A stretch of 13,616 bases of DNA from a virus, in UHGV virus genome UHGV-0269933, one strand, 5' to 3'. Position numbers and translations under genes: made by a program. Shown in pieces: positions 1-11,276 of this stretch. Position 1 is the first letter of the stretch, and each line of letters opens with the position of its first letter. Under the pieces are notes generated by a model. It did not search any database. It saw only the letters and a list, made by a program, of their open reading frames with translations, and had not been told where the DNA came from.

Positions 1-25
1 TACTAATCAGTTAAGTGTTTGTTTT

Positions 26-63
26 AAAAGGCGCTACTCGGCATGGGGAAGCGCCTTTTTTAT
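26..63 (+). repeat. attL-type direct repeat (38 bp), also a Rho-independent terminator hairpin
   Basis: aaaaggcgctactcggcatggggaagcgccttttttat is identical to 11239..11276. GGCGCT...AGCGCC stem followed by a T-run. Confidence 0.8.
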
Positions 64-68
64 TAAAT

Positions 69-90
69 TGACTGCACCACTGACTGCACC
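69..90 (+). repeat. Tandem arm-type repeats TGACTGCACC(AC)TGACTGCACC, putative integrase arm sites (P' arm)
   Basis: Tandem 12-bp period repeat immediately inside the left att core. Near-identical tandem repeat at 11045..11068 in the same orientation. Confidence 0.55.
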
Positions 91-115
91 GATACACGAA
101 CTATAGCGAACGGCG

Positions 116-145
116 TTGAACGAAATCACCAACTAATCGTAATAT
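116..145 (+). promoter_or_regulatory. Sigma70-like promoter for the Abi-like gene (TTGAAC-N18-TAATAT)
   Basis: -35 TTGAAC at 116..121 and -10 TAATAT at 140..145. SD AAGGGG at 164..169 upstream of ATG 180. Confidence 0.4.
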
Positions 146-170
146 GATAAACCTCTACATATGAAGGGGT

Positions 171-944
171 ATGGTGTACATGAAGTCTATTCTTGATGAA
201 CTTAGTACTGATATTGAGCGCGCTGAAAGTCTACAGTCCCAGCTGATTAGCGTAGCTACTGGCGGACCTGCGTTACCATATGAATATCAGGAGCTAAGAC
301 GTTTTTTTGTTGAATCACCACTATATAGCAACATTATTCCCTCTTTCGTAAAAACAAACCGCAACACCGACCAATTTTGGCAATTTATTAAATACAAATT
401 TGGTACATATGCTGAAAGAAGGCAGTACATTTGGGATGAATTCCAAGAATTGATGGACTATCTGGAGGGTAAAAACAAAGCACCCGCAGATGAGGACATC
501 TCTGATGTATTAAGACGGTTTGATGAGGATGGTGTTCACACCGTGTGGATGAAAGCACTAGAACGGCGCCACACAGACCCGGATGGGGCGATAACCTCTG
601 CAAGAACACTTCTAGAAACGGTTTGCAAGCACATTCTTGATGATATGGATGTCCCCTATAATAATAAAAATATAGAAATGTCAGAGCTTTATAAAATACT
701 ATCAAAAGAACTTAACTTATCTGCCGACCAGCATACTGAAAGTATTTTCAAACAAATTCTTGGTGGTTGTTCAGCCGTTGTAAATGGGCTAGGTACTCTT
801 CGTAATAAACTTGGTGACGCACATGGAAAGAATCGCTCATCAGTTAAACCATCACCAAGGCATGCAGAACTCGCTGTAAATTTATCAGGCTCAATGGCTC
901 TTTTTCTAATTAGCTCATGGTTAAACCTTAAAGATAAAAATTAA
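171..944 (+). CDS. Abortive-infection family protein (Abi_C-like C-terminal domain); likely true start ATG at 180
   Basis: 257-aa ORF. C-terminal LGTLRNKLGDAHGK motif after a TLLETVCKHIL helix resembles the Abi_C family signature (from memory). AT-rich relative to flanks, own promoter and SD. Confidence 0.55.
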   Translation: MVYMKSILDELSTDIERAESLQSQLISVATGGPALPYEYQELRRFFVESPLYSNIIPSFVKTNRNTDQFWQFIKYKFGTYAERRQYIWDEFQELMDYLEGKNKAPADEDISDVLRRFDEDGVHTVWMKALERRHTDPDGAITSARTLLETVCKHILDDMDVPYNNKNIEMSELYKILSKELNLSADQHTESIFKQILGGCSAVVNGLGTLRNKLGDAHGKNRSSVKPSPRHAELAVNLSGSMALFLISSWLNLKDKN

Positions 945-969
945 TGAACTATGGACGTGATATGACCAA

Positions 970-1227
970 TTAGTTAATCATTATGTTCATCGGTTTAAGC
1001 TGTTTCTGGCTGTTCACCAGCCAATCTTGCATGTATTTGCACCAGGTACTGAACATCGCCTCATCAGTGCCTGGATAGGTGTACAGATACCCCATAAGGA
1101 CTTTATCGGTAATCTCATCCTCTTGATCCCAACCAATGATGAATTGACGAAATAGGCCGTATGATTTAGCCGGATCCGTATTCCTCCACGTTTCCACTAC
1201 TACATCGAATGCCGGAACCCTGAATGT
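970..1227 (-). pseudogene. 3' remnant of an unknown gene truncated by the IS66-family element
   Basis: Track ORF 970..1293; its N-terminal 22 aa are translation of the IS terminal repeat. Only the C-terminal ~85 aa (RVPAFDVVVETWRNTDPAKSYGLFRQF...) lie outside the IS. No start codon or SD. Confidence 0.35.
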
Positions 1228-2001
1228 GTAAGCGTGCAGTGAGAACCGTATTGACGAAGTGAAGCTGGTCAGGCAGGCAGAGTAACCCGCCACGGGAGCA
1301 GAGCACCCACCCGGTTCACAGGCCAGTCGGCGATGACATCAAGTACATAATGCAGATAGCGTTCCGGATCCACGCCGTTTAATTTGCACGTCCCGATAAG
1401 ACTGTACAGTGACGCACCGCGCTCACCACCATGATCCGAGCCGAAGAACAGCCAGTTTTTTCTCCCCAGACTGACCCGTCGTAGGGCGTTTTCGGCAATG
1501 TTATTATCCACCTCCACCCAGCCATCTTCTGCATAGCGGATCAGCGCCGGCCACTGGTTCAGCGCATACCCGAACGCCTTCGCCAGTTCTGAGTGCCTTG
1601 AGAGGGTTTTCTGTTTCTCCCGCAGCCACCCCTCCAGTGACGCCAGCAGCGGCAGCACTTTTTGGTGCCGGACTGCCTGCCGTTCCTCTGCTCTTTTACC
1701 TCTGATCTCCGACTCGATGGCATACAGCTCGCCGATCCGTTTCAGCGCCTCTTGCGAATGTCTGTCCTCTGGCTTTACTGGTGTTCATGTATTTTTCAAA
1801 GCCGGGGAGTGTAACTGACAGCGCTCGAAATACCTCTCGCGGTGTGCTAATCACTCGCTGGTGCTCCCGGCCAAATAATCTGATCAGAGGACCACTCAGT
1901 TTGATAGTTGTCATGACTTCTGCACATGGATTCATAGCCGCCTCAGTTAATTTTGGAGAAAGGAAACGGTTAGGCTTTTTTTAGCTCAAAATAGCGCTTA
2001 C
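1228..2001 (-). mobile_element. Internally deleted IS66-family insertion sequence remnant (~0.77 kb)
   Basis: GTAAGCG-type terminal sequences at both ends (1228 on +, 2001 on -). Contains the C-terminal ~170 aa of an IS66 TnpC-like transposase. No matching 8-bp target-site duplication (ctgaatgt vs catttcct). Confidence 0.7.
1269..1783 (-). pseudogene. IS66-family transposase (TnpC) C-terminal fragment
   Basis: Translation ...ALKRIGELYAIESEIRG...LAKAFGYALNQWPALIRYAEDGWVEVDNNIAENALRRVSLGRKNWLFFGSDHGGERGASLYSLIGTCKLNGVDPERYL...LLPW matches the conserved TnpC C-terminus. In-frame stop lies upstream at ~1786; N-terminal two-thirds absent. Confidence 0.8.
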
Positions 2002-2161
2002 CATTTCCTTTCTTTTTAGATGGTGTTTTCATTAAAAACATATAGTTACATCGAAGAAGAACAGAAACGGCAAATCGCAGAAAATTTTCATAAATAGCAA
2101 GAATCTGCGAGGTCGCCGCCCCGTAGCAGGCCGAATTGCCCGAAAGGACCCGCGCCGAAAT

Positions 2162-2268
2162 CGCTCAAACTTCAATCGGCCGAGTTTTCGAGGCGTTAAA
2201 GAGTAGATATGGGAATATCACATATGTAAAAACCAGCCGCGCTCAAACTTCAATCGGCCGAGTTTTCG
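2162..2268. repeat. Pair of perfect 29-bp direct repeats (2162..2190, 2240..2268) with embedded 9-bp-stem hairpin in second copy
   Basis: cgctcaaacttcaatcggccgagttttcg occurs twice, 78 bp apart. Second copy extends into aatcggccg-agtttt-cggccgatt inverted repeat. Confidence 0.6.
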
Positions 2269-2307
2269 GCCGATTACCAGGTCCGCCGGGTCATTCGGGC
2301 CTGTCGG

Positions 2308-2694
2308 TCAGCCAATCAACGTGCTTTTCCCGCCGCGAGCCTGCTGGCGCACACGCTCGGCCTTAAGGCAAAGAGATGCTTCAGGCTTAGCAGGTACAGG
2401 AACATGGCAGGTTTCAGAGGTCCGGGGAATGTTATTGATCCATTCAATAACTTCACTCAGATACCACGCCTTGCGCCCCTCAGTGACCTGGACGCGTACT
2501 GGAAACTCACCTCGCGCTTCGAGATTCAGCAATGTACGGCGGCTCAGCGTGGTGAGTTCTATGACCTGATTCATATCAACCAGGCGCTCACTGACGTTCA
2601 TTTTGTCTGCCATCTCCAGCAGTTCACCCACCACTGGATCCGGATAGAGAGCATTGGCGGTGGCCATCAGGCTGTTATTTTTATCTTGCATCAT
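2308..2694 (-). CDS. AlpA/Vis-family HTH DNA-binding protein (second copy, with N- and C-terminal extensions)
   Basis: Core MNQVIELTTLSRRTLLNLEARGEFPVRVQVTEGRKAWYLSEVIEWIN fits the phage AlpA/excisionase-type HTH pattern. Start ATGATG at 2694/2691 with AAGGAG SD; the 144-aa track ORF start is an unsupported upstream extension. Confidence 0.55.
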   Translation of the reverse strand: MMQDKNNSLMATANALYPDPVVGELLEMADKMNVSERLVDMNQVIELTTLSRRTLLNLEARGEFPVRVQVTEGRKAWYLSEVIEWINNIPRTSETCHVPVPAKPEASLCLKAERVRQQARGGKSTLIG

Positions 2695-2701
2695 AATCTC
2701 C

Positions 2702-3043
2702 TTACACCAGTGCCAGTGGCTGAACAGAAATACCAGAGCCAACGAACGCTGCTACTTTTGCAGAAAGCGTGGTTACATCATCAGGCCAGTTAAGGGCATC
2801 AACATTCAGCACGCCAGCTTTGTAGACCTGAGCATGTGTCTGGCTTGCGGTATCAACAGCAAAGCAAGATACATAGACAGCCTGCCCGGCATGCGCCCCA
2901 TCCCAGACCACCAAAGCCCCATTGGTAGCATCCTGCATAAGTGGAGTCAGCGCGGGAATAACGCCCTTTGCTCCAGCGAAGATACCCAGAGTTGTCACCA
3001 GCGCTTCAGTACCGGCCGCCAGTTCAGTGTAATGCGTCGTCAT
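2702..3043 (-). CDS. Phage head decoration protein, lambda gpD-like
   Basis: 113 aa; ALTPLMQDATNGALVVWDG...VYKAG...AAFVGSGISV aligns with lambda gpD (AMTPLMLDTSSRKLVAWDG...FYKSG...TAFAGTAISIV). AAGGAG SD; translationally coupled to upstream capsid gene. Confidence 0.75.
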   Translation of the reverse strand: MTTHYTELAAGTEALVTTLGIFAGAKGVIPALTPLMQDATNGALVVWDGAHAGQAVYVSCFAVDTASQTHAQVYKAGVLNVDALNWPDDVTTLSAKVAAFVGSGISVQPLALV

Positions 3044-3052
3044 GATTACTCC

Positions 3053-4093
3053 TTAGGCCACGCGAACGGTGACAAAACGGTTGATACGGGCCGGGATAGG
3101 CTGCGGTGCGGAGTGGGTCTGAACGTACTCAATAGCTGGGTCGCCAGGAACAATGTAGTTCTTTGGCGCCAGCTCAGCTTTGGTAATACCCATACGGATG
3201 AGCTCTGGATCCTGAATTCCGCCGTAGGCCACAATGCCCTGCAGGGCGGTGTTTCCCAGCACCATCAAATCAGGATCGAGGAAGTGCTTTTCGGTGCCGT
3301 CTTCGTCGGTATAGCGACCGCTATAAACCACAATAGCCACATCGCCCATATAGCCTTTAAAGCTCACTGAATCGCCCAGGTCTTTAAGTGCTGTTTCAAG
3401 CTGTGCGTTGGAGCCGCGGCGCGTGTCGAGTACATCTTTAATCGCTTTGAAAGAACGATATTTTTTCCAGACGTTCCCGCCCATAATGATGATATTGGTT
3501 ACGCCTTCACTCAGCTCTGAATAGGTTTCAATATCGTCATTTGGATCAAACGTCGTTTTATCTTTACCTGACCAGGCAGCGCCACCAGCCTGAGTGATTA
3601 TATTCTGGGATTTGATATTCCAGTCCAGCTCATAACGCTCGATCCCTTCCCCCTCAATAATATTTTTCCCGGTAGTTACAGCCTGAACAGCCAGCCATTC
3701 AATACGCGCACGAATAGCAATAGACTGTTTGAGGATTGACTGTTTTACCTTGATATTGCGGGTATCAAGCGTGCTGTATTGATCAGGAGTAACACCAGCA
3801 GGACGAACAGCCAGTTTGTTAGGGTCAATGTTGCTCTTTGGTTTCATGTAGCCAGGACGGATAGACTTGGACTCATATCCCTCATCACGCGCCACCTTAC
3901 TACCCACCATAGGCGAACAGAACGCCGCGATTGGAATATTTGGGTCGTCGATAGTGTCCAGGATGATATCGCGCGTTTCAAAAGTAACTGCGCGGGTAAA
4001 GAATAAATCAGTGAACAGGGTTTTTAGTTGCTTCTGAATATCCTCAGCGCTAACAACCCGAACCAGCGCCGCAGGTGAATATAAATCTGGCAT
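3053..4093 (-). CDS. Major capsid protein, lambda gpE-like
   Basis: 346 aa, full-length collinear similarity to lambda gpE (341 aa): PGYMKPK..., ITQAGGAAWSGKDKTTFDPNDDIETY..., FRSFKAIKDVLDTRRGSNAQLETALKDLG...YMGDVAIVVYSG...MVLGNT...YGGIQD...GDPA... SD GAGG upstream of ATG. Confidence 0.9.
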   Translation of the reverse strand: MPDLYSPAALVRVVSAEDIQKQLKTLFTDLFFTRAVTFETRDIILDTIDDPNIPIAAFCSPMVGSKVARDEGYESKSIRPGYMKPKSNIDPNKLAVRPAGVTPDQYSTLDTRNIKVKQSILKQSIAIRARIEWLAVQAVTTGKNIIEGEGIERYELDWNIKSQNIITQAGGAAWSGKDKTTFDPNDDIETYSELSEGVTNIIIMGGNVWKKYRSFKAIKDVLDTRRGSNAQLETALKDLGDSVSFKGYMGDVAIVVYSGRYTDEDGTEKHFLDPDLMVLGNTALQGIVAYGGIQDPELIRMGITKAELAPKNYIVPGDPAIEYVQTHSAPQPIPARINRFVTVRVA

Positions 4094-4301
4094 ATATTAC
4101 CTCAGTAAAATAAATAGAGCGTTCATCACAAAAATAATGTTAACACTGACAAACACAGAATGATTGAATGCAATGATGTGCAATAGAGTGCAATAATGTA
4201 TAAAGTTAATTCACGGTGATATGGCCCGCTAAATATCTGTTAATGTCCTCACTGTTATTTCCTCCAAATAACATCGTTCGTTAAAAATCCATGTTTTCCC
4301 A

Positions 4302-4331
4302 AGCGGGTCTGGTTGCAGCCCGCTTTTTTTT
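4302..4331 (+). terminator. Rho-independent terminator on + strand (hairpin + T8) with no annotated + strand gene upstream
   Basis: agcgggtctggttgcagcccgct stem-loop followed by tttttttt. Lies in the leader region upstream of the capsid gene. Confidence 0.45.
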
Positions 4332-4366
4332 CGTCTTTCGCAAAATTATGGATCGGCAAAATGAGT

Positions 4367-4646
4367 GGTGAAAATCACCCTACCCACAGCTTTAAAATTA
4401 AAAAATATCCTTTTAAGTGTTCACCCGTTCACCTTTGCGAATTTCTTAATTAAATTCATGTAGTTATAGGGTGAATACTACTCTTTCAGGTATTCACTAG
4501 TGTTCACCCTACCCTTCACCCTTTAGGGCAAAAAACAATCAAAAGGTGAACAGGTGAATACTTGGTGAATACTTAATAAATAAGTGTCCACCCCTTAACA
4601 CTCTGTTATTAATAGAATTTTAAACAGGGTGAATACTGGTGAACAC
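4367..4646. repeat. Iteron cluster of P4 ori/crr type (TGTTCACC / GTATTCACC), ~12 copies in both orientations
   Basis: TGTTCACC at 4418, 4426, 4501; GGTGAACA/GGTGAATAC at 4470, 4545, 4553, 4564, 4628, 4638; variants at 4490, 4513, 4585; GGTGAAAATCACC palindrome at 4367. Matches the P4 type I iteron motif bound by alpha (recalled). Confidence 0.7.
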
Positions 4647-4659
4647 TTTATCTATAACT

Positions 4660-5361
4660 TTACTCTACCCCTTCATTCTCAGTAGTGATTGCACATGATG
4701 GCATCCAGTCGCCAGAATCATCATGCAGGGTTACGTTAGAGCGTATGCCATGTTTGGTTTTCCGCTTCTGGTATTCCTTCCCATACTCAACCATTGCGCC
4801 AGGCATATCTGTACCGAACCGCATCAGTGAGACAGGCTTACTCAGGCCATTGGCTCTCATGTATGCCAGATAGGCGTGATACAGGTACTTGCGCGGGCTG
4901 AATGGCACTATCTCGGCATTACCGATAAACATCCCGTCACACACTACCGACGCCATCAGGTAGCCGCAGAAGTCCACCAGCGAATCACCTTCACGCTTGA
5001 TCGCCAGAGCCTCCTCTGATTTCTGCTGCTCATACAATAACCGTCTGGCTTCGTCCTGGTCTGCAAAACGTGTAAGCAGATGGCGGATAACTACAGCCAG
5101 TTCCCCTTCTATTTTCTCTGCCAGCATCGAGTCTCGCTCGTTTTCTGGTACAACCTCCGAGAAATTGAAAATAACCCGGCGCCGCGAAATCCCCCCGCTA
5201 CGGTCGCTGAATGTCATAGCATTGTTGTTTACCGCCAGCACCACCGCCGGAATACGGGTTGAATATGGTGCTTTATGTTTAGGATCGATAGACACCTTGT
5301 CACCACCAGTTATGGCCTTAATACCTGCACCATCGCCAGCGTACCGGGTCATATCAGGCAT
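4660..5361 (-). CDS. P4 alpha-type primase/helicase C-terminal (iteron-binding) domain homolog, stand-alone/truncated
   Basis: 233 aa beginning near the SF3-helicase arginine-finger region (AVVLAVNNNAMTFSDRSGGISRRRVIFNF). No Walker A/B or primase domain. Located immediately upstream of the TGTTCACC iterons, as the alpha 3' end is in P4. Confidence 0.55.
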   Translation of the reverse strand: MPDMTRYAGDGAGIKAITGGDKVSIDPKHKAPYSTRIPAVVLAVNNNAMTFSDRSGGISRRRVIFNFSEVVPENERDSMLAEKIEGELAVVIRHLLTRFADQDEARRLLYEQQKSEEALAIKREGDSLVDFCGYLMASVVCDGMFIGNAEIVPFSPRKYLYHAYLAYMRANGLSKPVSLMRFGTDMPGAMVEYGKEYQKRKTKHGIRSNVTLHDDSGDWMPSCAITTENEGVE

Positions 5362-5427
5362 AATGATCGTAATGTTCCTTTATTTCATGAATCGTAATAG
5401 GCATAAATTCTCCTTGTTTGTCTAACC

Positions 5428-5620
5428 TGCCGCATTTAGTGCCGCGTTTAGCAATGCCGCACTTAGCGCCGCACCAGTTTTCTCAAAAAATTACGCAAAC
5501 CCAGTAATGACGTGGGTTTCAGTGAAATGCCGCACTTAGCGCGTGTATACAGGGACTAAGTGCGGCATTTGGTCATAAAACATACTAAATGCCGCACATG
5601 CCGCACTTACCGCCGCATTT
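5428..5620. repeat. Cluster of >=5 copies of ATGCCGCACTTAGCGC-like repeats including a 15-bp perfect inverted repeat
   Basis: Copies at ~5428, 5455, 5527, 5554 (inverted), 5588-5620. AAATGCCGCACTTAG-N16-CTAAGTGCGGCATTT at 5526..5571. Hairpin aaaccca/tgggttt at 5497..5519. Confidence 0.6.
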
Positions 5621-6983
5621 ACTCGACTGTTACCGGGTAAAGGTTCTCACCCTCGATGCGAATAATTTGCTCACTCTCCAGCTTGTCCAGCCAGCGCGGG
5701 AATGACTTTCTCACTTTGTCTGAGCCCAGCGTTGCACGCAGATCGTCTTTAATGACGGAGATAGTGCATGGCTCCCCCTTAGCTGTTCGGCTGCGAACTG
5801 CCTGCCATAGTGCATGATGGTTATCGCTAAGACGGGATACATGGGCCAGTTCAGGCTCAACCTCTTTAGCCTCTCTCGGCTGATCGTGCACAACCAGAGA
5901 GCAAACAAGCTCGCCATCTTCATCGGTGTAAAGCTCTGCCGTTCTCAGGTCATACGCTTTACGCTCTGGCTCCTCCGCGTCTTTCATCTTGGTACAGGTC
6001 AGAATAAGCGCTTTTCCATCCCCTTCACGCTTAACGTTAAATTCAGTATCAAGCGCAGCGCGGAAAGCACTGGAACCGCGAGCGCCTTTCCCTTCATCTT
6101 TGCCGGAGTGGTGAACTACCAGCACCGTTGCACCCGTTTTCTGTTTGATAACGTCACACCCTTCAATAAATGCCCCCATATCACGAGCATCGTTCTCGTC
6201 GTTACCGCCAAAACAACGGGCCAGCGTATCGATCACCACCATGCGAACCGGCACACCACATTCGGCTTCAATCTGCCTGGCAGCCAGAAGAACTTCTGTA
6301 ACCTCTGACTCACGCACCGGGAACACCGGACGATTGACCAGCCAGAGGTTGTCTGCCTGTATGCCATGCACCTGTTCCCATGCCCGTATACGCCGGGGAA
6401 CACCTACACCACCCTCGCCAACCACATACAGCACCGCGCCGGGAGTGACCTTCTTCCCCGCCCATGGCAGACCAGCAGCGATATGACAGGCCCACGACAC
6501 GGCAAGAAAACTCTTATACGAACCGCTGGGGCCGTAAATGCTGCACAGTGATTGCGCTGGCAGAAAGTGTTTAAGGATATAGTCCTGACGGATATCAAAG
6601 CCCTCAGAACCGCGAGAGAGAGGCAGCTTTGTCCTGAACTTTGCACCAGCATCAGGGAATACGCGGTGAATGCGCTGCACGTCAGACAGCATGGCATTCA
6701 TTTCCCCTTCGCCTATCTCTTCCACCAGCACAGAACGCCGCGCGGTAATCATATGTTTGCGGTCGGTATCGAGATACCCGGCATCACAAAGCTCCTCATA
6801 CGGCATTGCTGCTATCTGGTTGAGGCGAGCCACCAGCTTTCCGTAACGGGTAGTGGGGTCCTTATGCTGGTGGAGAGCTTTATCCAAATCGCTGCGACTG
6901 TACTGCTTGCCATGCGCCCACAGATACGAACAGGTGAACAAGGCATCCGATACGGTTTCTACAGCTGTCAGTTGTACCGTCAT
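5619..6983 (-). CDS. RepA-like replicative helicase / AAA_25 (RecA-fold) ATPase with N- and C-terminal accessory domains
   Basis: 454 aa; Walker A GPSGSYKS, Walker B-like VVIDTLARCF, HHSGKDEGKGARGSSA motif typical of RSF1010 RepA/DnaB-like helicases. ATGA overlap with upstream gene. Confidence 0.75.
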   Translation of the reverse strand: MTVQLTAVETVSDALFTCSYLWAHGKQYSRSDLDKALHQHKDPTTRYGKLVARLNQIAAMPYEELCDAGYLDTDRKHMITARRSVLVEEIGEGEMNAMLSDVQRIHRVFPDAGAKFRTKLPLSRGSEGFDIRQDYILKHFLPAQSLCSIYGPSGSYKSFLAVSWACHIAAGLPWAGKKVTPGAVLYVVGEGGVGVPRRIRAWEQVHGIQADNLWLVNRPVFPVRESEVTEVLLAARQIEAECGVPVRMVVIDTLARCFGGNDENDARDMGAFIEGCDVIKQKTGATVLVVHHSGKDEGKGARGSSAFRAALDTEFNVKREGDGKALILTCTKMKDAEEPERKAYDLRTAELYTDEDGELVCSLVVHDQPREAKEVEPELAHVSRLSDNHHALWQAVRSRTAKGEPCTISVIKDDLRATLGSDKVRKSFPRWLDKLESEQIIRIEGENLYPVTVE

Positions 6984-7572: not shown

Positions 7573-7750
7573 TGAGCGCTCCCGTTTCATTCTGCTCCAC
7601 CATGCTTGCCGCAAGTTGATCCGATACTCGTCTGGCCAGACTGATAAGGTTTTCACGCTCAACCTGATCAACGTCGTACTCTTCGACAACCATCAACAAC
7701 GCAGCCAGTTCACAGGCTATTGACGCACTTTTATTGGTTAATTCACGCAT
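7565..7750 (-). CDS. Hypothetical small protein (61 aa)
   Basis: Start ATG at 7750 in ATGCGTGA overlap with upstream gene stop. Track ORF 7565..7912 is an upstream extension in another gene's sequence. Confidence 0.5.
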
Positions 7751-8012
7751 GGCGCACCTCCTGAATAGCTGCGCTATCGAACTCCCAGCCACGGCGGGTG
7801 GTGTAATCGAAAAACGCAACGCGACAAGGAGACTGGGCGCGGATTTTGGCAGCGAAAACCAAATCCCAGCCGGGGAATGCAGAGCGGGCTTTATCTTCCG
7901 TATCAGCATCAAAGCGGAGCACTACAGGTGTGCATTTTGGGGTGTGGTCTGGGGTTGCCAGGAATAACCATGTAAATTCCGGGCGAGTTTGGGTATGCTG
8001 TTGATCAGCCAT
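7743..8012 (-). CDS. Hypothetical protein (89 aa), first gene of replication operon
   Basis: Start ATG at 8012 with GGAG SD ([13 protein letters not shown]...). The 318-aa track ORF 7743..8699 upstream of this Met is low-complexity, Cys/Arg/Ser-rich non-coding translation. Confidence 0.55.
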
Positions 8013-8139
8013 AACTGTTACTCCGATTAACGGTTTGGTTAGACGCCCTGGTACTGCTCTAACAGTCCGGGGCGTTGCTTTTTGGTATGCACCTGCCATA
8101 CACTTGATTACCATTTCAAAGTAATCAGGTGTCAACCAA

Positions 8140-8319
8140 ATGTCAACCATAGAAATTAAAGCCAAAGGTAACAAGCAGATCGCATTACGCGTAGAACCAA
8201 ACCTAGAAGAAGGAATTAAACAGGCTCTGGCGCAAGATGGTGACGCTTCTGTATCAGCATGGATAAAGCGAATAATCCGCAAAGAGTTACAGCAGCGAGG
8301 CATTGAGCCGAAAAGCTGA
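8140..8319 (+). CDS. Small ribbon-helix-helix-like DNA-binding protein (59 aa), candidate island regulator/repressor; absent from ORF track
   Basis: ATG 8140 with AGGTG SD 9 nt upstream; stop TGA 8317..8319. KQIALRVEP strand plus two amphipathic helices fits Arc/MetJ/CopG topology. Divergent from the replication operon across a 127-bp region. Confidence 0.5.
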
Positions 8320-8499
8320 TACCCAAAATCTGGGTAACGGTCGAAACTACGGGAATTCTCCGGGGTATGCTGCATTGCAGTACACCCGGCACTCTGTTCC
8401 AGTTCTCCCCAGATTTGGGGAAATGGGGTATGCGCCAATGCCGTACACCCTAAACAGCCCAATTTCTGGGTAGTTTCACGTAACCGCGCCATTGACACA

Positions 8500-8519
8500 G
8501 TTCCTGTAATTACAGGAAC
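8500..8519. promoter_or_regulatory. 20-bp perfect palindrome GTTCCTGTAATTACAGGAAC adjacent to TTGACA; candidate operator
   Basis: Perfect dyad symmetry. TTGACA hexamer at 8492..8497 immediately upstream. Confidence 0.45.
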
Positions 8520-8588
8520 GCTCAGGCTTTGACCACCAGCATTAACCCTGGTATCCTGACTTTGCTTAATTTTTTGGTAGTGACATTG

Positions 8589-8616
8589 GCGGCCCGGCAT
8601 GGCCGCTTTTGTTTTA
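8589..8616 (+). terminator. Rho-independent terminator on + strand
   Basis: gcggcc-cggcat-ggccgc hairpin followed by ttttgtttta; ~270 nt downstream of the RHH gene stop. Confidence 0.55.
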
Positions 8617-8634
8617 TGTGACATTCCCCACCCC

Positions 8635-8844
8635 TCACGCTGCTTTGCTGCGGCTCTGCTGCCATGCTGTGACCTCAGAAAGAAGCCAACCAACGGCACG
8701 ACCTCCCAGCTTACGGCGGGCGGGAAAGCTCCCCTCTTTTTCCATCATGTATCGAGTGGTTCGACAAATACCGGTTAGCTGTCGGCACTCAGCCTCACGG
8801 ATAACTCTTTCTGCTGGCTGCTGGGATTGTTTAATATTGTTCAT
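8635..8844 (-). CDS. alpA: AlpA-family transcriptional regulator (prophage CP4-57-type)
   Basis: 69 aa from MNNIKQ; ...[43 protein letters not shown] is the AlpA HTH signature. The longer 81-aa reading would translate through a hairpin and has no SD. Confidence 0.75.
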
Positions 8845-8959: not shown

Positions 8960-9802
8960 TCAAGATAATTCTTTCCTGATTTTATCTAAAGAATCACTTC
9001 TTATGATTTTATCCAAGAAAGGTTTTACCGTTTGAGCTATGGCAAAGGACTCCTTTTCTCCATCCGGGAACAGGGATACTGCGAGTACGCCAAGAGATAT
9101 TTTGCTGTCGGTAGCGCTTTCCCATGACATCAAATCAATAAGTGGAATTATTCTGTAGTCAATTATTTTCCGTCTGACGCTCTCCCAGTCCCCTGAGACT
9201 GGCTTATCTGGTTCAGGTATTCCGAGTTCTTCGCGCCATTTTGGGAGGAGGTTCGTGAATGCTTCAATCAAAAGATCATCTCTGTTGTTTAAGTCAACAG
9301 TAATCATCACGTTTTCCACAACATCAGAAAGTAAGTTTACTGGCTCGCGCATGATAGCCCAAAACATACCGTTATCTGCTGTAAACAAATCCCCCACCAA
9401 ATCATCGTCAACTACTATTGGCTTTCCTTTCCAGTGACCTTTATCAGCATTGATTTTATTTAAAAATGCCAACTCAAATCTCATTAATGGTTTTATACCA
9501 TCGCCGTAACTTAATTTTAGCAAATCAGGCTGAGTCTTGTACTCGTATTCCTTTTGCTTTTCAAGAAACCATTCTTCTGCTTTGAGTTCCCCGAATGGAT
9601 CACCAAAATTATTGTTAAGCGGGTATTTAGCACCATATTGCAAACCATAGTCAGGGCAGTCTGTATTTTTTATTGCTAAATCATCGCATCGCCAATAGAG
9701 CTGACGAAACAAATCCTTATCAGACATATTTTCAAGGTCATCATATTTTTCCAAGCTGAATGACTTTGGTAAGTCTCTTTTACTGTTAATTTTTTTTGTC
9801 AT
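8960..9802 (-). CDS. Hypothetical protein (280 aa), AT-rich cargo gene translationally coupled to integrase; function unknown
   Basis: ATG overlaps the integrase stop codon (ATGA). Markedly lower GC than neighbours; acidic, Lys/Asp/Glu-rich; no motif recognised. Confidence 0.6.
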   Translation of the reverse strand: MTKKINSKRDLPKSFSLEKYDDLENMSDKDLFRQLYWRCDDLAIKNTDCPDYGLQYGAKYPLNNNFGDPFGELKAEEWFLEKQKEYEYKTQPDLLKLSYGDGIKPLMRFELAFLNKINADKGHWKGKPIVVDDDLVGDLFTADNGMFWAIMREPVNLLSDVVENVMITVDLNNRDDLLIEAFTNLLPKWREELGIPEPDKPVSGDWESVRRKIIDYRIIPLIDLMSWESATDSKISLGVLAVSLFPDGEKESFAIAQTVKPFLDKIIRSDSLDKIRKELS

Positions 9803-11022
9803 CTTGCGACCTCAAGAATAGTAACATTTGAGATATCAGAGGTAATAACCTCTAATCTCTGCATCCATTTATTCAGTGCATCCAGCTTTTCAGGTAAATA
9901 CTGACTGCGGTTATATACGGACATGACACCGCCCAGCGCATGGCCCAGAAGCTGCTCGACAACATGCGGAGCAATTCCCATGTTGTTCAGAGTCGTGGAA
10001 AACGTACGGCGTAGATCGTGAAGCGTCCACGGTTCAGAGTGGCCCAGACGCTTATACAACATCCTTCCCCACTGACTGACAGCTTCCGGTTTCTTTATCT
10101 CTCCAAGCAAAAGCCCTGTGCTTTGGTGCTGCTCTAAGAGCTGTTTGATAAATGGGCGGATATCTACGGGAATAGGACGTAGTATTTTCTCACCACCTTT
10201 GCTGTGCTCTTTAGGTACAGTCCAAACCCAATCACTTAGATCCCATTCGGTTACGCGAGACAATCTCAACTCCTGAGTTCGGCACCCAAACACTACTAGC
10301 AGACGTAGCAGCGAGGAGTAGTAGGGCTTGAATTTCAAGCCTGAACACTCCCGCCATATATCAGCCAGTTCTTGCCGGGTATGTTCCCTGTCCCGTTTAT
10401 TCTGTTTACGTCCAACATCATCAATGGTCAGATCGTCCAGGACATTACTCACCGCGTACCGATGAACACGGCAGAACTTGAGGGCTTGCTTACACATTTG
10501 CAGAAGATAGCCAGCAGCTACAGGAGCCTCATCTCTCACCCTGCTGAAACACTCCAGCCAGTGGCGGGTTTCGCACATAGAGAGGGGAAACGCCCCAATA
10601 TATGGGTAGATATGCTTATTGAGCTGTTCTATATGCTTTTCTACATTAGCCCGTTTATGAGATGCATATTCCCTTATCCAGTATTCAAGTGCCTCTTTTA
10701 CAGTTACCGGCTTAAGTGTTTCCTGTGTGGTGACAGTTAACTGGTGTTTCGGGTTCTTCCCCTCAGCAAGCCAGGCACGACATTGATCTCGCTTTGCCCT
10801 CGCGGCCTTAAGTGAAAGATCGGGATAGTTACCTAACTTCAAACGCTGAGGGGCAGTACTGCGTCCACCAATACGGTATGTAAAATACCAGGTCATTATG
10901 CCTATCTTTGACACCTTTACGCTCAGGCCATCACCATCAGCGTAAAAGCTATCACCGGGGCTTTCCCTCCCAACCATCTTGCGGAGCGATGTATCGCTTA
11001 ACTTGTTCGTTCCACCAGCCAT
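9799..11022 (-). CDS. int: Site-specific tyrosine recombinase, P4-type integrase (Arm-binding N-domain + catalytic domain)
   Basis: 407 aa. N-terminal ...DGDGLSVKVSKIGIMTWYFTYRIGG...LKLGNYPDLSLKAARAKRD arm-binding pattern. C-terminal HDLRRTFST...LGHALGGVMSVYNRSQY catalytic motifs, similar to P4 Int. GAGG SD. Confidence 0.9.
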   Translation of the reverse strand: MAGGTNKLSDTSLRKMVGRESPGDSFYADGDGLSVKVSKIGIMTWYFTYRIGGRSTAPQRLKLGNYPDLSLKAARAKRDQCRAWLAEGKNPKHQLTVTTQETLKPVTVKEALEYWIREYASHKRANVEKHIEQLNKHIYPYIGAFPLSMCETRHWLECFSRVRDEAPVAAGYLLQMCKQALKFCRVHRYAVSNVLDDLTIDDVGRKQNKRDREHTRQELADIWRECSGLKFKPYYSSLLRLLVVFGCRTQELRLSRVTEWDLSDWVWTVPKEHSKGGEKILRPIPVDIRPFIKQLLEQHQSTGLLLGEIKKPEAVSQWGRMLYKRLGHSEPWTLHDLRRTFSTTLNNMGIAPHVVEQLLGHALGGVMSVYNRSQYLPEKLDALNKWMQRLEVITSDISNVTILEVAR

Positions 11023-11195: not shown

Positions 11196-11213
11196 AAATA
11201 CGGCATGAACTAA
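11196..11213 (+). other. fis: Last six codons of fis (K-Y-G-M-N-stop) at the island/chromosome junction
   Basis: aaa tac ggc atg aac taa encodes the conserved Fis C-terminus. Stop lies 85 bp upstream of the yhdJ ATG. Sequence upstream is integrase leader, not fis. Confidence 0.5.
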
Positions 11214-11238
11214 TTCAGGTTAGCTAAATGCTTGATTA

Positions 11239-11276
11239 AAAAGGCGCTACTCGGCATGGGGAAGCGCCTTTTTTAT
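11239..11276 (+). terminator. attR-type direct repeat, the fis Rho-independent terminator
   Basis: Identical to 26..63. GC-rich hairpin followed by a T6 run, upstream of yhdJ. Confidence 0.8.

Follow-up and report, generated by a model that had tools for sequence, protein, structure and literature searches.

The PICIs of Gram-negative bacteria share a four-zone organization, and the att identity block of those integrated at fis has been published (PMC10111431). Their late zones are understood to form by gene capture followed by loss, whereas IS elements in PICIs have been mentioned but not analyzed (PMC10111431). According to the literature, the late gene seen most often in Gram-negative PICIs is a major capsid gene standing alone, and transfer does not depend on it. 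Tommasini, Mageeney & Williams 2023 (PMC10111431) describe satellites inserted into a capsid gene as helper-embedded PICIs.

The window analyzed here, a stretch of 13,616 nt considered at its full length, is E. coli chromosome with an 11.2-kb island between fis and yhdJ, and the island is a fis PICI. Homologous loci are flanked by fis to the left and by yhdJ, yhdU and acrS to the right, and the chromosomal flank of L012, which carries an identical island, is 99.7% identical to E. coli. The island resembles the described fis PICIs and helper-embedded PICIs (PMC10111431; PMC6092414) in its position at the fis attB with the published identity block, in its four zones, and in possessing a captured lambda E-type capsid gene and a cos site. 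It differs from the fis PICIs in nothing essential, but the late zone of the window copy is scarred by an IS, and most of the primase gene has given way to a RepA-helicase replicon. Among the more distant relatives, at ~75-82% nucleotide identity, L004, L005, L006 and L011 are E-D-AlpA-cos satellites that split the major capsid gene of a lambdoid prophage; they are embedded in prophage E in the same manner as Eco567.11capE and represent helper-embedded PICIs. Strain NRG 857C was among the matches (H157). The features that frame the island are as follows.

9-63: left copy of the att duplication, covering the fis terminator region
180-944, plus strand: Abi_C/AbiJ-like abortive-infection gene, 254 aa, intact (Pfam Abi_C E=7.8e-22; PADLOC AbiJ E=1e-20)
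2308-2691, minus strand: late-zone AlpA-family regulator, 127 aa, intact (Pfam Phage_AlpA E=3.5e-8)
2702-3043, minus strand: head decoration protein D, intact (Pfam HDPD E=7e-14)
3053-4093, minus strand: major capsid protein E, intact (Pfam Phage_cap_E E=8e-45)
4660-5361, minus strand: C-terminal remnant of a primase, 233 aa (Pox_D5 ORF)
5425-5617: five iterons
5619-6983, minus strand: RepA-type helicase
between the integrase and the RepA helicase, reading right to left: DUF6387 protein, then a short AlpA, then an Icd-like region
9799-11022, minus strand: tyrosine integrase, at the right end of the island
11222-11276: right copy of the att duplication, pairing with 9-63

The att duplication is a 55-nt direct repeat of 91% identity in which the 3′ 34 nt are identical, and TACGGCATGAACTAA at 11199-11213 is an exact match to the published fis-PICI att identity block; the identity block of attL is itself cut by the left edge of the window, and the match is the one at the right side. 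Integration at the fis attB is thus evident from the identity block, the 55-nt repeat and the fis and yhdJ flanks. The gene order in the window is the four-zone order of Gram-negative PICIs, with an inward integrase and AlpA followed by regulatory, replication and late zones, and with no tail genes L or M; neither Phage_tail_L nor Phage_min_tail was found among the genes called on the identical island L013. The Abi gene represents the accessory or defense gene at the 3′ end of the island, and an Rfam search at gathering thresholds returned zero matches within the window. On the replication side, the 233-aa Pox_D5 ORF is what remains of the 599-aa primase present in full in L015, L016, L019 and L024. 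Identity to these intact-primase islands ends at 5368, beyond which the window has the iterons and the RepA-type helicase, and this boundary is a second recombination scar, marking a replicon swap. Farther to the right, a 318-aa ORF at 7743-8699 (minus strand) has an Icd-like cell-division-inhibitor domain at residues 242-287 only; since the Icd-like protein of L001 and L002 is encoded by a separate gene of ~70 aa, the ORF may be a fusion or over-extended.

The late zone between the Abi and AlpA genes is where the window departs from its relatives, and it contains the following elements.

970-1227, minus strand: X′, the 3′ fragment of a gene for a 128-aa protein, codons 44-128 and stop, with the first 43 codons gone
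1220-1227: IS66 target octamer CTGAATGT, the surviving copy of a would-be target-site duplication
1228-1751, minus strand: IS66-family remnant, 524 of 2,437 bp, 100% identical to L003 3505-4028
1696-1935, minus strand: chimeric ORF (P0033), 79 aa, beginning MNPCAEVMTTIKLSG, with 61 gpI residues and 18 residues out of frame into the IS
1751-1752: deletion junction, at which the interior of tnpC is joined without microhomology to codon 62 of the gpI-like gene
1752-1935, minus strand: gpI′, 184 nt from the 5′ end (codons 1-61) of a lambda gpI-like tail-assembly gene that encodes 205 aa when complete
~1945-2125, minus strand: lambda-type cos site, intact, aligning with lambda NC_001416 (bases 1-175 matched)

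Elements of the IS66 family are of the tnpA-tnpB-tnpC type, about 2.4-2.7 kb long, with imperfect terminal repeats starting GTAAGCG and an 8-bp target duplication. The complete copy taken as reference here, the 2,437-bp element of E. coli strain 873.10 (L003), is annotated tnpA-tnpB-tnpC, has the ends GTAAGCG... and ...CGCTTAC, and is bordered on both sides by the 8-bp target duplication CCTTATGT. The window is identical to this copy from the terminal G at 1228 to 1751 (524/524) and then diverges completely. By megablast, IS66 copies were found in 524 E. coli records, with an identity of ≥99% in 317, and among the matches listed the IS66 alignments all end at window position 1751; from 1752 on the window instead follows the IS-free satellites at 99.5-100%. 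The initial annotation had correctly recognized an IS66-family fragment, as both the Pfam IS66 domains and the 100% identity to a complete E. coli copy indicate, and had placed its left limit exactly at 1227|1228, but the right limit at 2001 was 250 bp too far, and instead of ~0.77 kb only 524 bp of the element are left. Positions 1752-2001 are not IS66 and comprise the first 61 codons of the gpI-like gene together with part of the cos site.

The remnant amounts to 21% of the element and consists of one terminal inverted repeat (GTAAGCG at 1228), 41 nt of end region and the 3′ 483 nt of tnpC, which hold its last 160 codons and the stop codon at 1269-1271. Nothing is left of tnpA and tnpB, of the 5′ two-thirds of tnpC or of the second terminal repeat. 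The ORF at 1269-1658 (minus strand) matches Pfam DDE_Tnp_IS66 (E=5e-26, profile positions 207-283 of 284) and DDE_Tnp_IS66_C (E=1.6e-17), so that the DDE transposase TnpC characteristic of the family is represented by its C-terminal part. The resemblance to IS66 therefore lies in 524 bp identical to the 3′ end of tnpC and a terminal repeat, with the corresponding C-terminal domains, while the difference lies in the single end and in the absence of a complete transposase and of a target duplication: the CGCTTAC end is not present in the window, satellite DNA is found beyond 1751 where tnpA and tnpB should lie upstream of tnpC, and the second copy of the octamer is gone with the deleted end. With three of the four marks of an IS66 element missing, the remnant is a dead, immobile fragment. 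It had been described as decayed, yet it is 100% identical to active copies and has undergone no mutational decay.

At the left limit of the remnant, the unoccupied target in L008 and L041 reads ...CCTGAATGT|CACCATTACGGG, beginning with CACC just past CCTGAATGT, whereas in the window the IS end stands directly after CTGAATGT. The absence of a target-site duplication had been noted before, and rightly so, but it is uninformative because only one end of the IS survives. The right limit reads ...CAGCGCCTC|TTGCGAATG..., where IS66 goes on with CTCCG and the island sequence is preceded by ...GAAGA, and in a three-way comparison of the window, the IS66 of L003 and the IS-free L024 and L041 zero bases are common across 1751|1752. 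The octamer GCGAATGT at 1754-1761 was considered as a second IS66 target and rejected, as it lies 2 nt off the junction and has no abutting IS end.

IS-free relatives were found by looking up contigs encoding X, the AlpA of the window and the Abi of the window. In L035 and L041 the order is fis, Abi, X (128 aa), gpI-like gene (205 aa), cos, AlpA (127 aa), D and E, continuing in L035 past E into a primase (DUF927). These two islands are 100% identical to the window over 1-1227 and 1752-2158, and L034, L039 and L043 are nearly so; more broadly, L007, L008, L010 and L034-L043 match window positions 1-1227 at 99.2-100%, with the match ending exactly at the end of the IS. In the IS-free islands an identical Abi protein adjoins an intact X. 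Between the two flanks L041 has 559 bp (6049-6607) that are absent from the window and are replaced there by the 524 bp of IS66. The missing segment takes in the 5′-terminal 129 nt of X and the 3′-terminal 434 nt of the gpI-like gene, two reading frames that share 4 nt, and in L035 and L041 the gap is without any other gene. Both junctions are placed to the base by this comparison, which also gives the size of the loss and the gene content of the IS-free state. The fragment at 970-1227 is, as had been supposed, the 3′ part of a gene, namely codons 44-128 and the stop of a conserved 128-aa protein, and the view that the IS truncated a gene with a deletion alongside is borne out as well, although two genes are in fact affected, with X cut short at the start and the gpI-like gene at the end.

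Since the flank-identical IS-free islands are only ~96% identical to the window across E-D-AlpA and reside in non-E. coli hosts, the direct progenitor of the window island is a mosaic, itself unobserved. Among complete E. coli genomes both the scar and the IS-free Abi-X allele are missing, and the closest match is one of 86% in Abi. Exact-pattern scans for the unoccupied IS target site in the GTDB representative genomes and for the junction of the IS end with X in the JGI metagenomes both gave zero matches, and so did a scan of the JGI metagenomes and the GTDB representatives for a full-IS intermediate, in which the other terminal repeat would be followed by CTGAATGT and the 5′ end of X.

Of protein X, the window keeps residues 44-128, and in L035 and L041 the identity is 100% up to 1227, from where the intact gene continues. 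The 85 residues of X′ have 32 homologues, mostly of 116-131 aa and with the best 96% identical, which are unannotated proteins of Citrobacter, Enterobacter, Pluralibacter, Phytobacter and metagenomes. X belongs to a conserved, unannotated family of 116-131 aa whose gene always directly follows the gpI-like gene, with a 4-bp overlap in the loci checked. The full-length protein (P0001) has no match in PHROGs or PADLOC, and the 85-aa fragment has none in Pfam or NCBIfam. A fold model of X (pLDDT 78.6) gave no significant match among solved structures and weak matches to predicted phage tape-measure chaperones (TM 0.5-0.56, E ~1e-3), which offers a lead toward a possible likeness to phage tape-measure or tail assembly chaperones.

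The truncated neighbor of X is more readily classified. The gpI′ fragment matches the tail assembly protein family phrog_32 (E=5.8e-15) and Pfam Lambda_tail_I (24.5 bits), and from 1752 on it is 100% identical to L035 and L041. The full-length genes of the IS-free relatives cover the whole lambda gpI profile (PF06805, PHROG 32), with phrog_32 matched at E=8e-78 over positions 2-201 of 203. Unlike gpI of lambda, which is encoded between K and J in the tail operon, the satellite gene lies directly after cos, is paired with the gene of a non-phage 128-aa protein, and is often degraded in relatives. It has been broken independently by an in-frame TGA in L004 and L005 (L004 9015-9017), by frameshifts in L026 (4679-5274) and L031 (4714-5308), and in L006 (6302-6454) to the extent that a C-terminal stub only is left. 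Such independent losses fit relaxed selection, accord with the published picture of late genes being captured and then lost (PMC10111431), and suggest that the gene is often dispensable in these satellites. The Tai tail-assembly-inhibition systems, which lie downstream of pri (PMC11364771), were considered and set aside, as nothing ties them to the gpI-like gene or to X (PMC11364771).

The nearest edge of the cos site is ~190 bp away from the scar. The cosN sequence GGGCGGCGACCT at 2121→2110 is the 12-nt cohesive end and identical to that of lambda, and in an alignment with lambda bases 1-200 the R3 and R2 repeats of cosB are one base each off lambda, while R1 (CGTTTCCTTTCTC) is identical. The site is of the lambda type in that the cohesive end is followed by R3, R2 and R1 at lambda-like spacing, and the cos stretch as a whole has ~81% matches to lambdoid phages. 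The gpI-like gene starts at the position where lambda has the start of Nu1, and L004 has a different cosN, GGGCGTCAGGCG. Between cos and the AlpA gene there is a 123-bp interval (2159-2281) with a 29-nt exact direct repeat (2162-2190 and 2240-2268, 78 bp apart) and palindromic TCGGCCGA motifs. The interval is length-polymorphic, being absent from L014, L024 and L035, 45 bp long in L012, L015, L016, L018 and L019, and 123 bp long in the window and L013, and a mini-insertion and a cosQ-side variable region are candidate readings of it.

The initial annotation had further proposed that the IS event may have deleted adjacent island modules and thereby capsid accessory genes beside E and D. In L034, L035, L039, L041 and L043 only the gpI-like gene and X lie between AlpA-cos and Abi. 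E and D are flanked by the replication zone or primase and by AlpA in every IS-free relative examined, in the order primase, E, D, AlpA, cos and gpI-like gene, and neither a portal, protease, scaffold nor large terminase gene was found in L024, L029, L034-L043 or in the more distant IS-free relatives L004, L005 and L011. Of these islands, L024 and L029 are 99.5% identical to the window over 2282-5368, that is across E-D-AlpA; the identical late-zone AlpA protein is recorded in 279 blocks of the protein collection. Since the IS-free relatives are likewise without portal, protease and terminase, E and D standing alone is the native design of this fis-PICI lineage and not an outcome of the IS. 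The initial annotation had itself named an unchanged gene content in IS-free islands as the sign against a loss of modules, and the comparison, which showed no capsid accessory genes, refutes that idea by its own measure. In L028, L030 and L032 Nu1- and Z-like genes are added between cos and the gpI-like gene, whereas the closest relatives are without them.

The history that very probably accounts for the scar is an insertion of IS66 into X followed by a non-homologous deletion of ~2.48 kb. The late end of the island would originally have read AlpA, cos, gpI-like gene (205 aa), X (128 aa), Abi and attL. The 2,437-bp IS66 would then have entered X by transposition at CTGAATGT, splitting the gene after codon 43, with the tnpC end of the element facing the 3′ end of X. 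A single deletion of ~2,480 bp would subsequently have removed 1,913 bp of the IS, the 8-bp second copy of the target and 559 bp of the island. The IS would thereby have been stripped of one terminal repeat, of tnpA and tnpB and of the 5′ two-thirds of tnpC; X would have lost codons 1-43 and the gpI-like gene its last 434 nt, so that an inert IS fragment of 524 bp was left with a truncated gene on either side. An octamer like the target of another copy, with the exact IS terminus directly beside it, is a signature of transposition, while the junction without microhomology points to non-homologous joining, yet identifies no mechanism. The order of the two steps is one that we infer, since no complete IS66 in X was found in the scanned collections. 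With cos, AlpA, D and E, the replication zone and the integrase all untouched, the island, judged by its gene content, is probably still mobilizable, and the intact lambda-type cos site is the one feature here that would favor induction, excision and packaging with a helper phage.

Several other histories may be considered for the same structure. A 524-bp piece of IS66 might have been pasted in from another IS66-bearing molecule in one step, by illegitimate recombination or gene conversion, replacing the 559 bp without there ever having been a full insertion in situ; the lack of a full-length intermediate among the scanned collections and the absence of homology at the internal junction agree with this, but at its other limit the fragment begins precisely with the terminal nucleotide of the IS, directly beside CTGAATGT, which resembles CCTTATGT, an unlikely coincidence for a random breakpoint, and such a replacement is improbable. 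A fusion of two tandem fis PICIs, in which a deletion of at least 10 kb would run from an IS66 in the X of the fis-proximal copy across an internal att into a second gpI-like gene and remove a whole island's worth of genes, draws on the documented existence of tandem fis PICIs (PMC10111431), on the high mosaicism of the family, and on the first left-flank references, L007, L008 and L036, which have a different late zone with a ClpP-capsid fusion and a gpI-like gene only 77-78% identical. Against the fusion, the window has only one att pair, and the single islands L035 and L041 hold both flanks at 100% with 559 bp between them; since single islands identical on both flanks exist, two tandem copies are unnecessary and their fusion is very improbable. 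The least credible history is that of the initial annotation, by which a transposase-mediated adjacent deletion took modules including capsid accessory genes and the IS decayed thereafter. A one-ended IS remnant without a target duplication does adjoin truncated genes, as that account would have it. In a classical transposase-mediated adjacent deletion, however, the IS stays whole and one of its ends abuts the new DNA, and the present case is not of that kind because one endpoint lies inside tnpC, the IS having lost 1,913 bp including its other end at a junction without microhomology. Moreover, merely 559 bp of island DNA are gone, no capsid accessory genes stand beside E and D in the IS-free relatives, and the remnant is still 100% identical to active copies.

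The insertion of IS66 into X and the subsequent deletion would have taken place once. The identical chimeric ORF is found in at least 17 contigs from several samples, and the scar-bearing module is present on at least four island backbones: window positions 34-5368 are ≥99.8% identical in L012, L015, L016, L018 and L019, but identity to the window is no more than 77-85% on the integrase side of L014-L017, and L015, L016 and L019 have the intact 599-aa primase where the window has the RepA helicase. The same chimeric ORF and the same 34-5368 block thus occur on differing backbones, from which it follows that the scar arose once and then traveled by recombination among fis PICI backbones. The hosts of L034-L043, L024 and L025 have neighboring housekeeping genes 82-94% identical to E. 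coli, and for the flank-identical IS-free alleles the prmA-panF region of the host is 82-84% identical; the Abi-X and gpI-cos modules, 100% identical to the window in hosts so diverged from E. coli, therefore indicate recent transfer between genera. Some of the IS-free hosts have a carbonic anhydrase gene between prmA and dusB. The spread could be taken to mean that the scar was selected and is not neutral, with the loss of the gpI-like gene and X, or the 79-aa chimera, benefiting the island in E. coli, for example by a removed or changed interaction with the tail assembly of the helper, which would explain the occurrence on several backbones. This is consistent with the number of backbones and contigs, with the E. 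coli identity of the one scar-bearing contig compared by its chromosomal flank (L012), with the location of every retrieved IS-free flank-identical island outside E. coli (flanking genes 82-94% identical), and with the weak fold resemblance of X to phage tape-measure chaperones. Hitch-hiking with the adjacent cos, E and D in recombination explains the spread equally well, however, and the independent breakage of the gpI-like gene in several relatives fits relaxed selection, so that we regard selection of the scar as unlikely. If it were nevertheless true, the loss of the gpI-like gene and X, a homologue of tail assembly and its possibly chaperone-like partner, or the gain of the chimera could alter the interaction of satellite and helper tail assembly in E. 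coli, and this would explain why one late-zone allele is found on several backbones and the intact allele was retrieved only from other genera.

Every component of the locus is of a known kind, namely an IS66 fragment, a fis PICI, a lambda-type cos and a homologue of gpI, and the scar is mechanistically nothing new but ordinary genome wear in the variable end of a known satellite class. The reconstruction corrects the history of the island, which did not lose capsid genes, and replaces it by a loss of exactly 559 bp. As a marker of single origin, the scar reveals a late-zone segment, from Abi through E and the 3′ end of the primase (34-5368), that is common to differing islands whose integrase and regulatory zones differ by 15-23%, and thereby recent module exchange among fis PICIs. 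The scar also disables the gpI-like gene and X together, a double knockout of natural origin. That the islands bearing it persist and continue to recombine suggests that neither captured late gene is indispensable, which agrees with the view that late zones evolve by capture and then loss.
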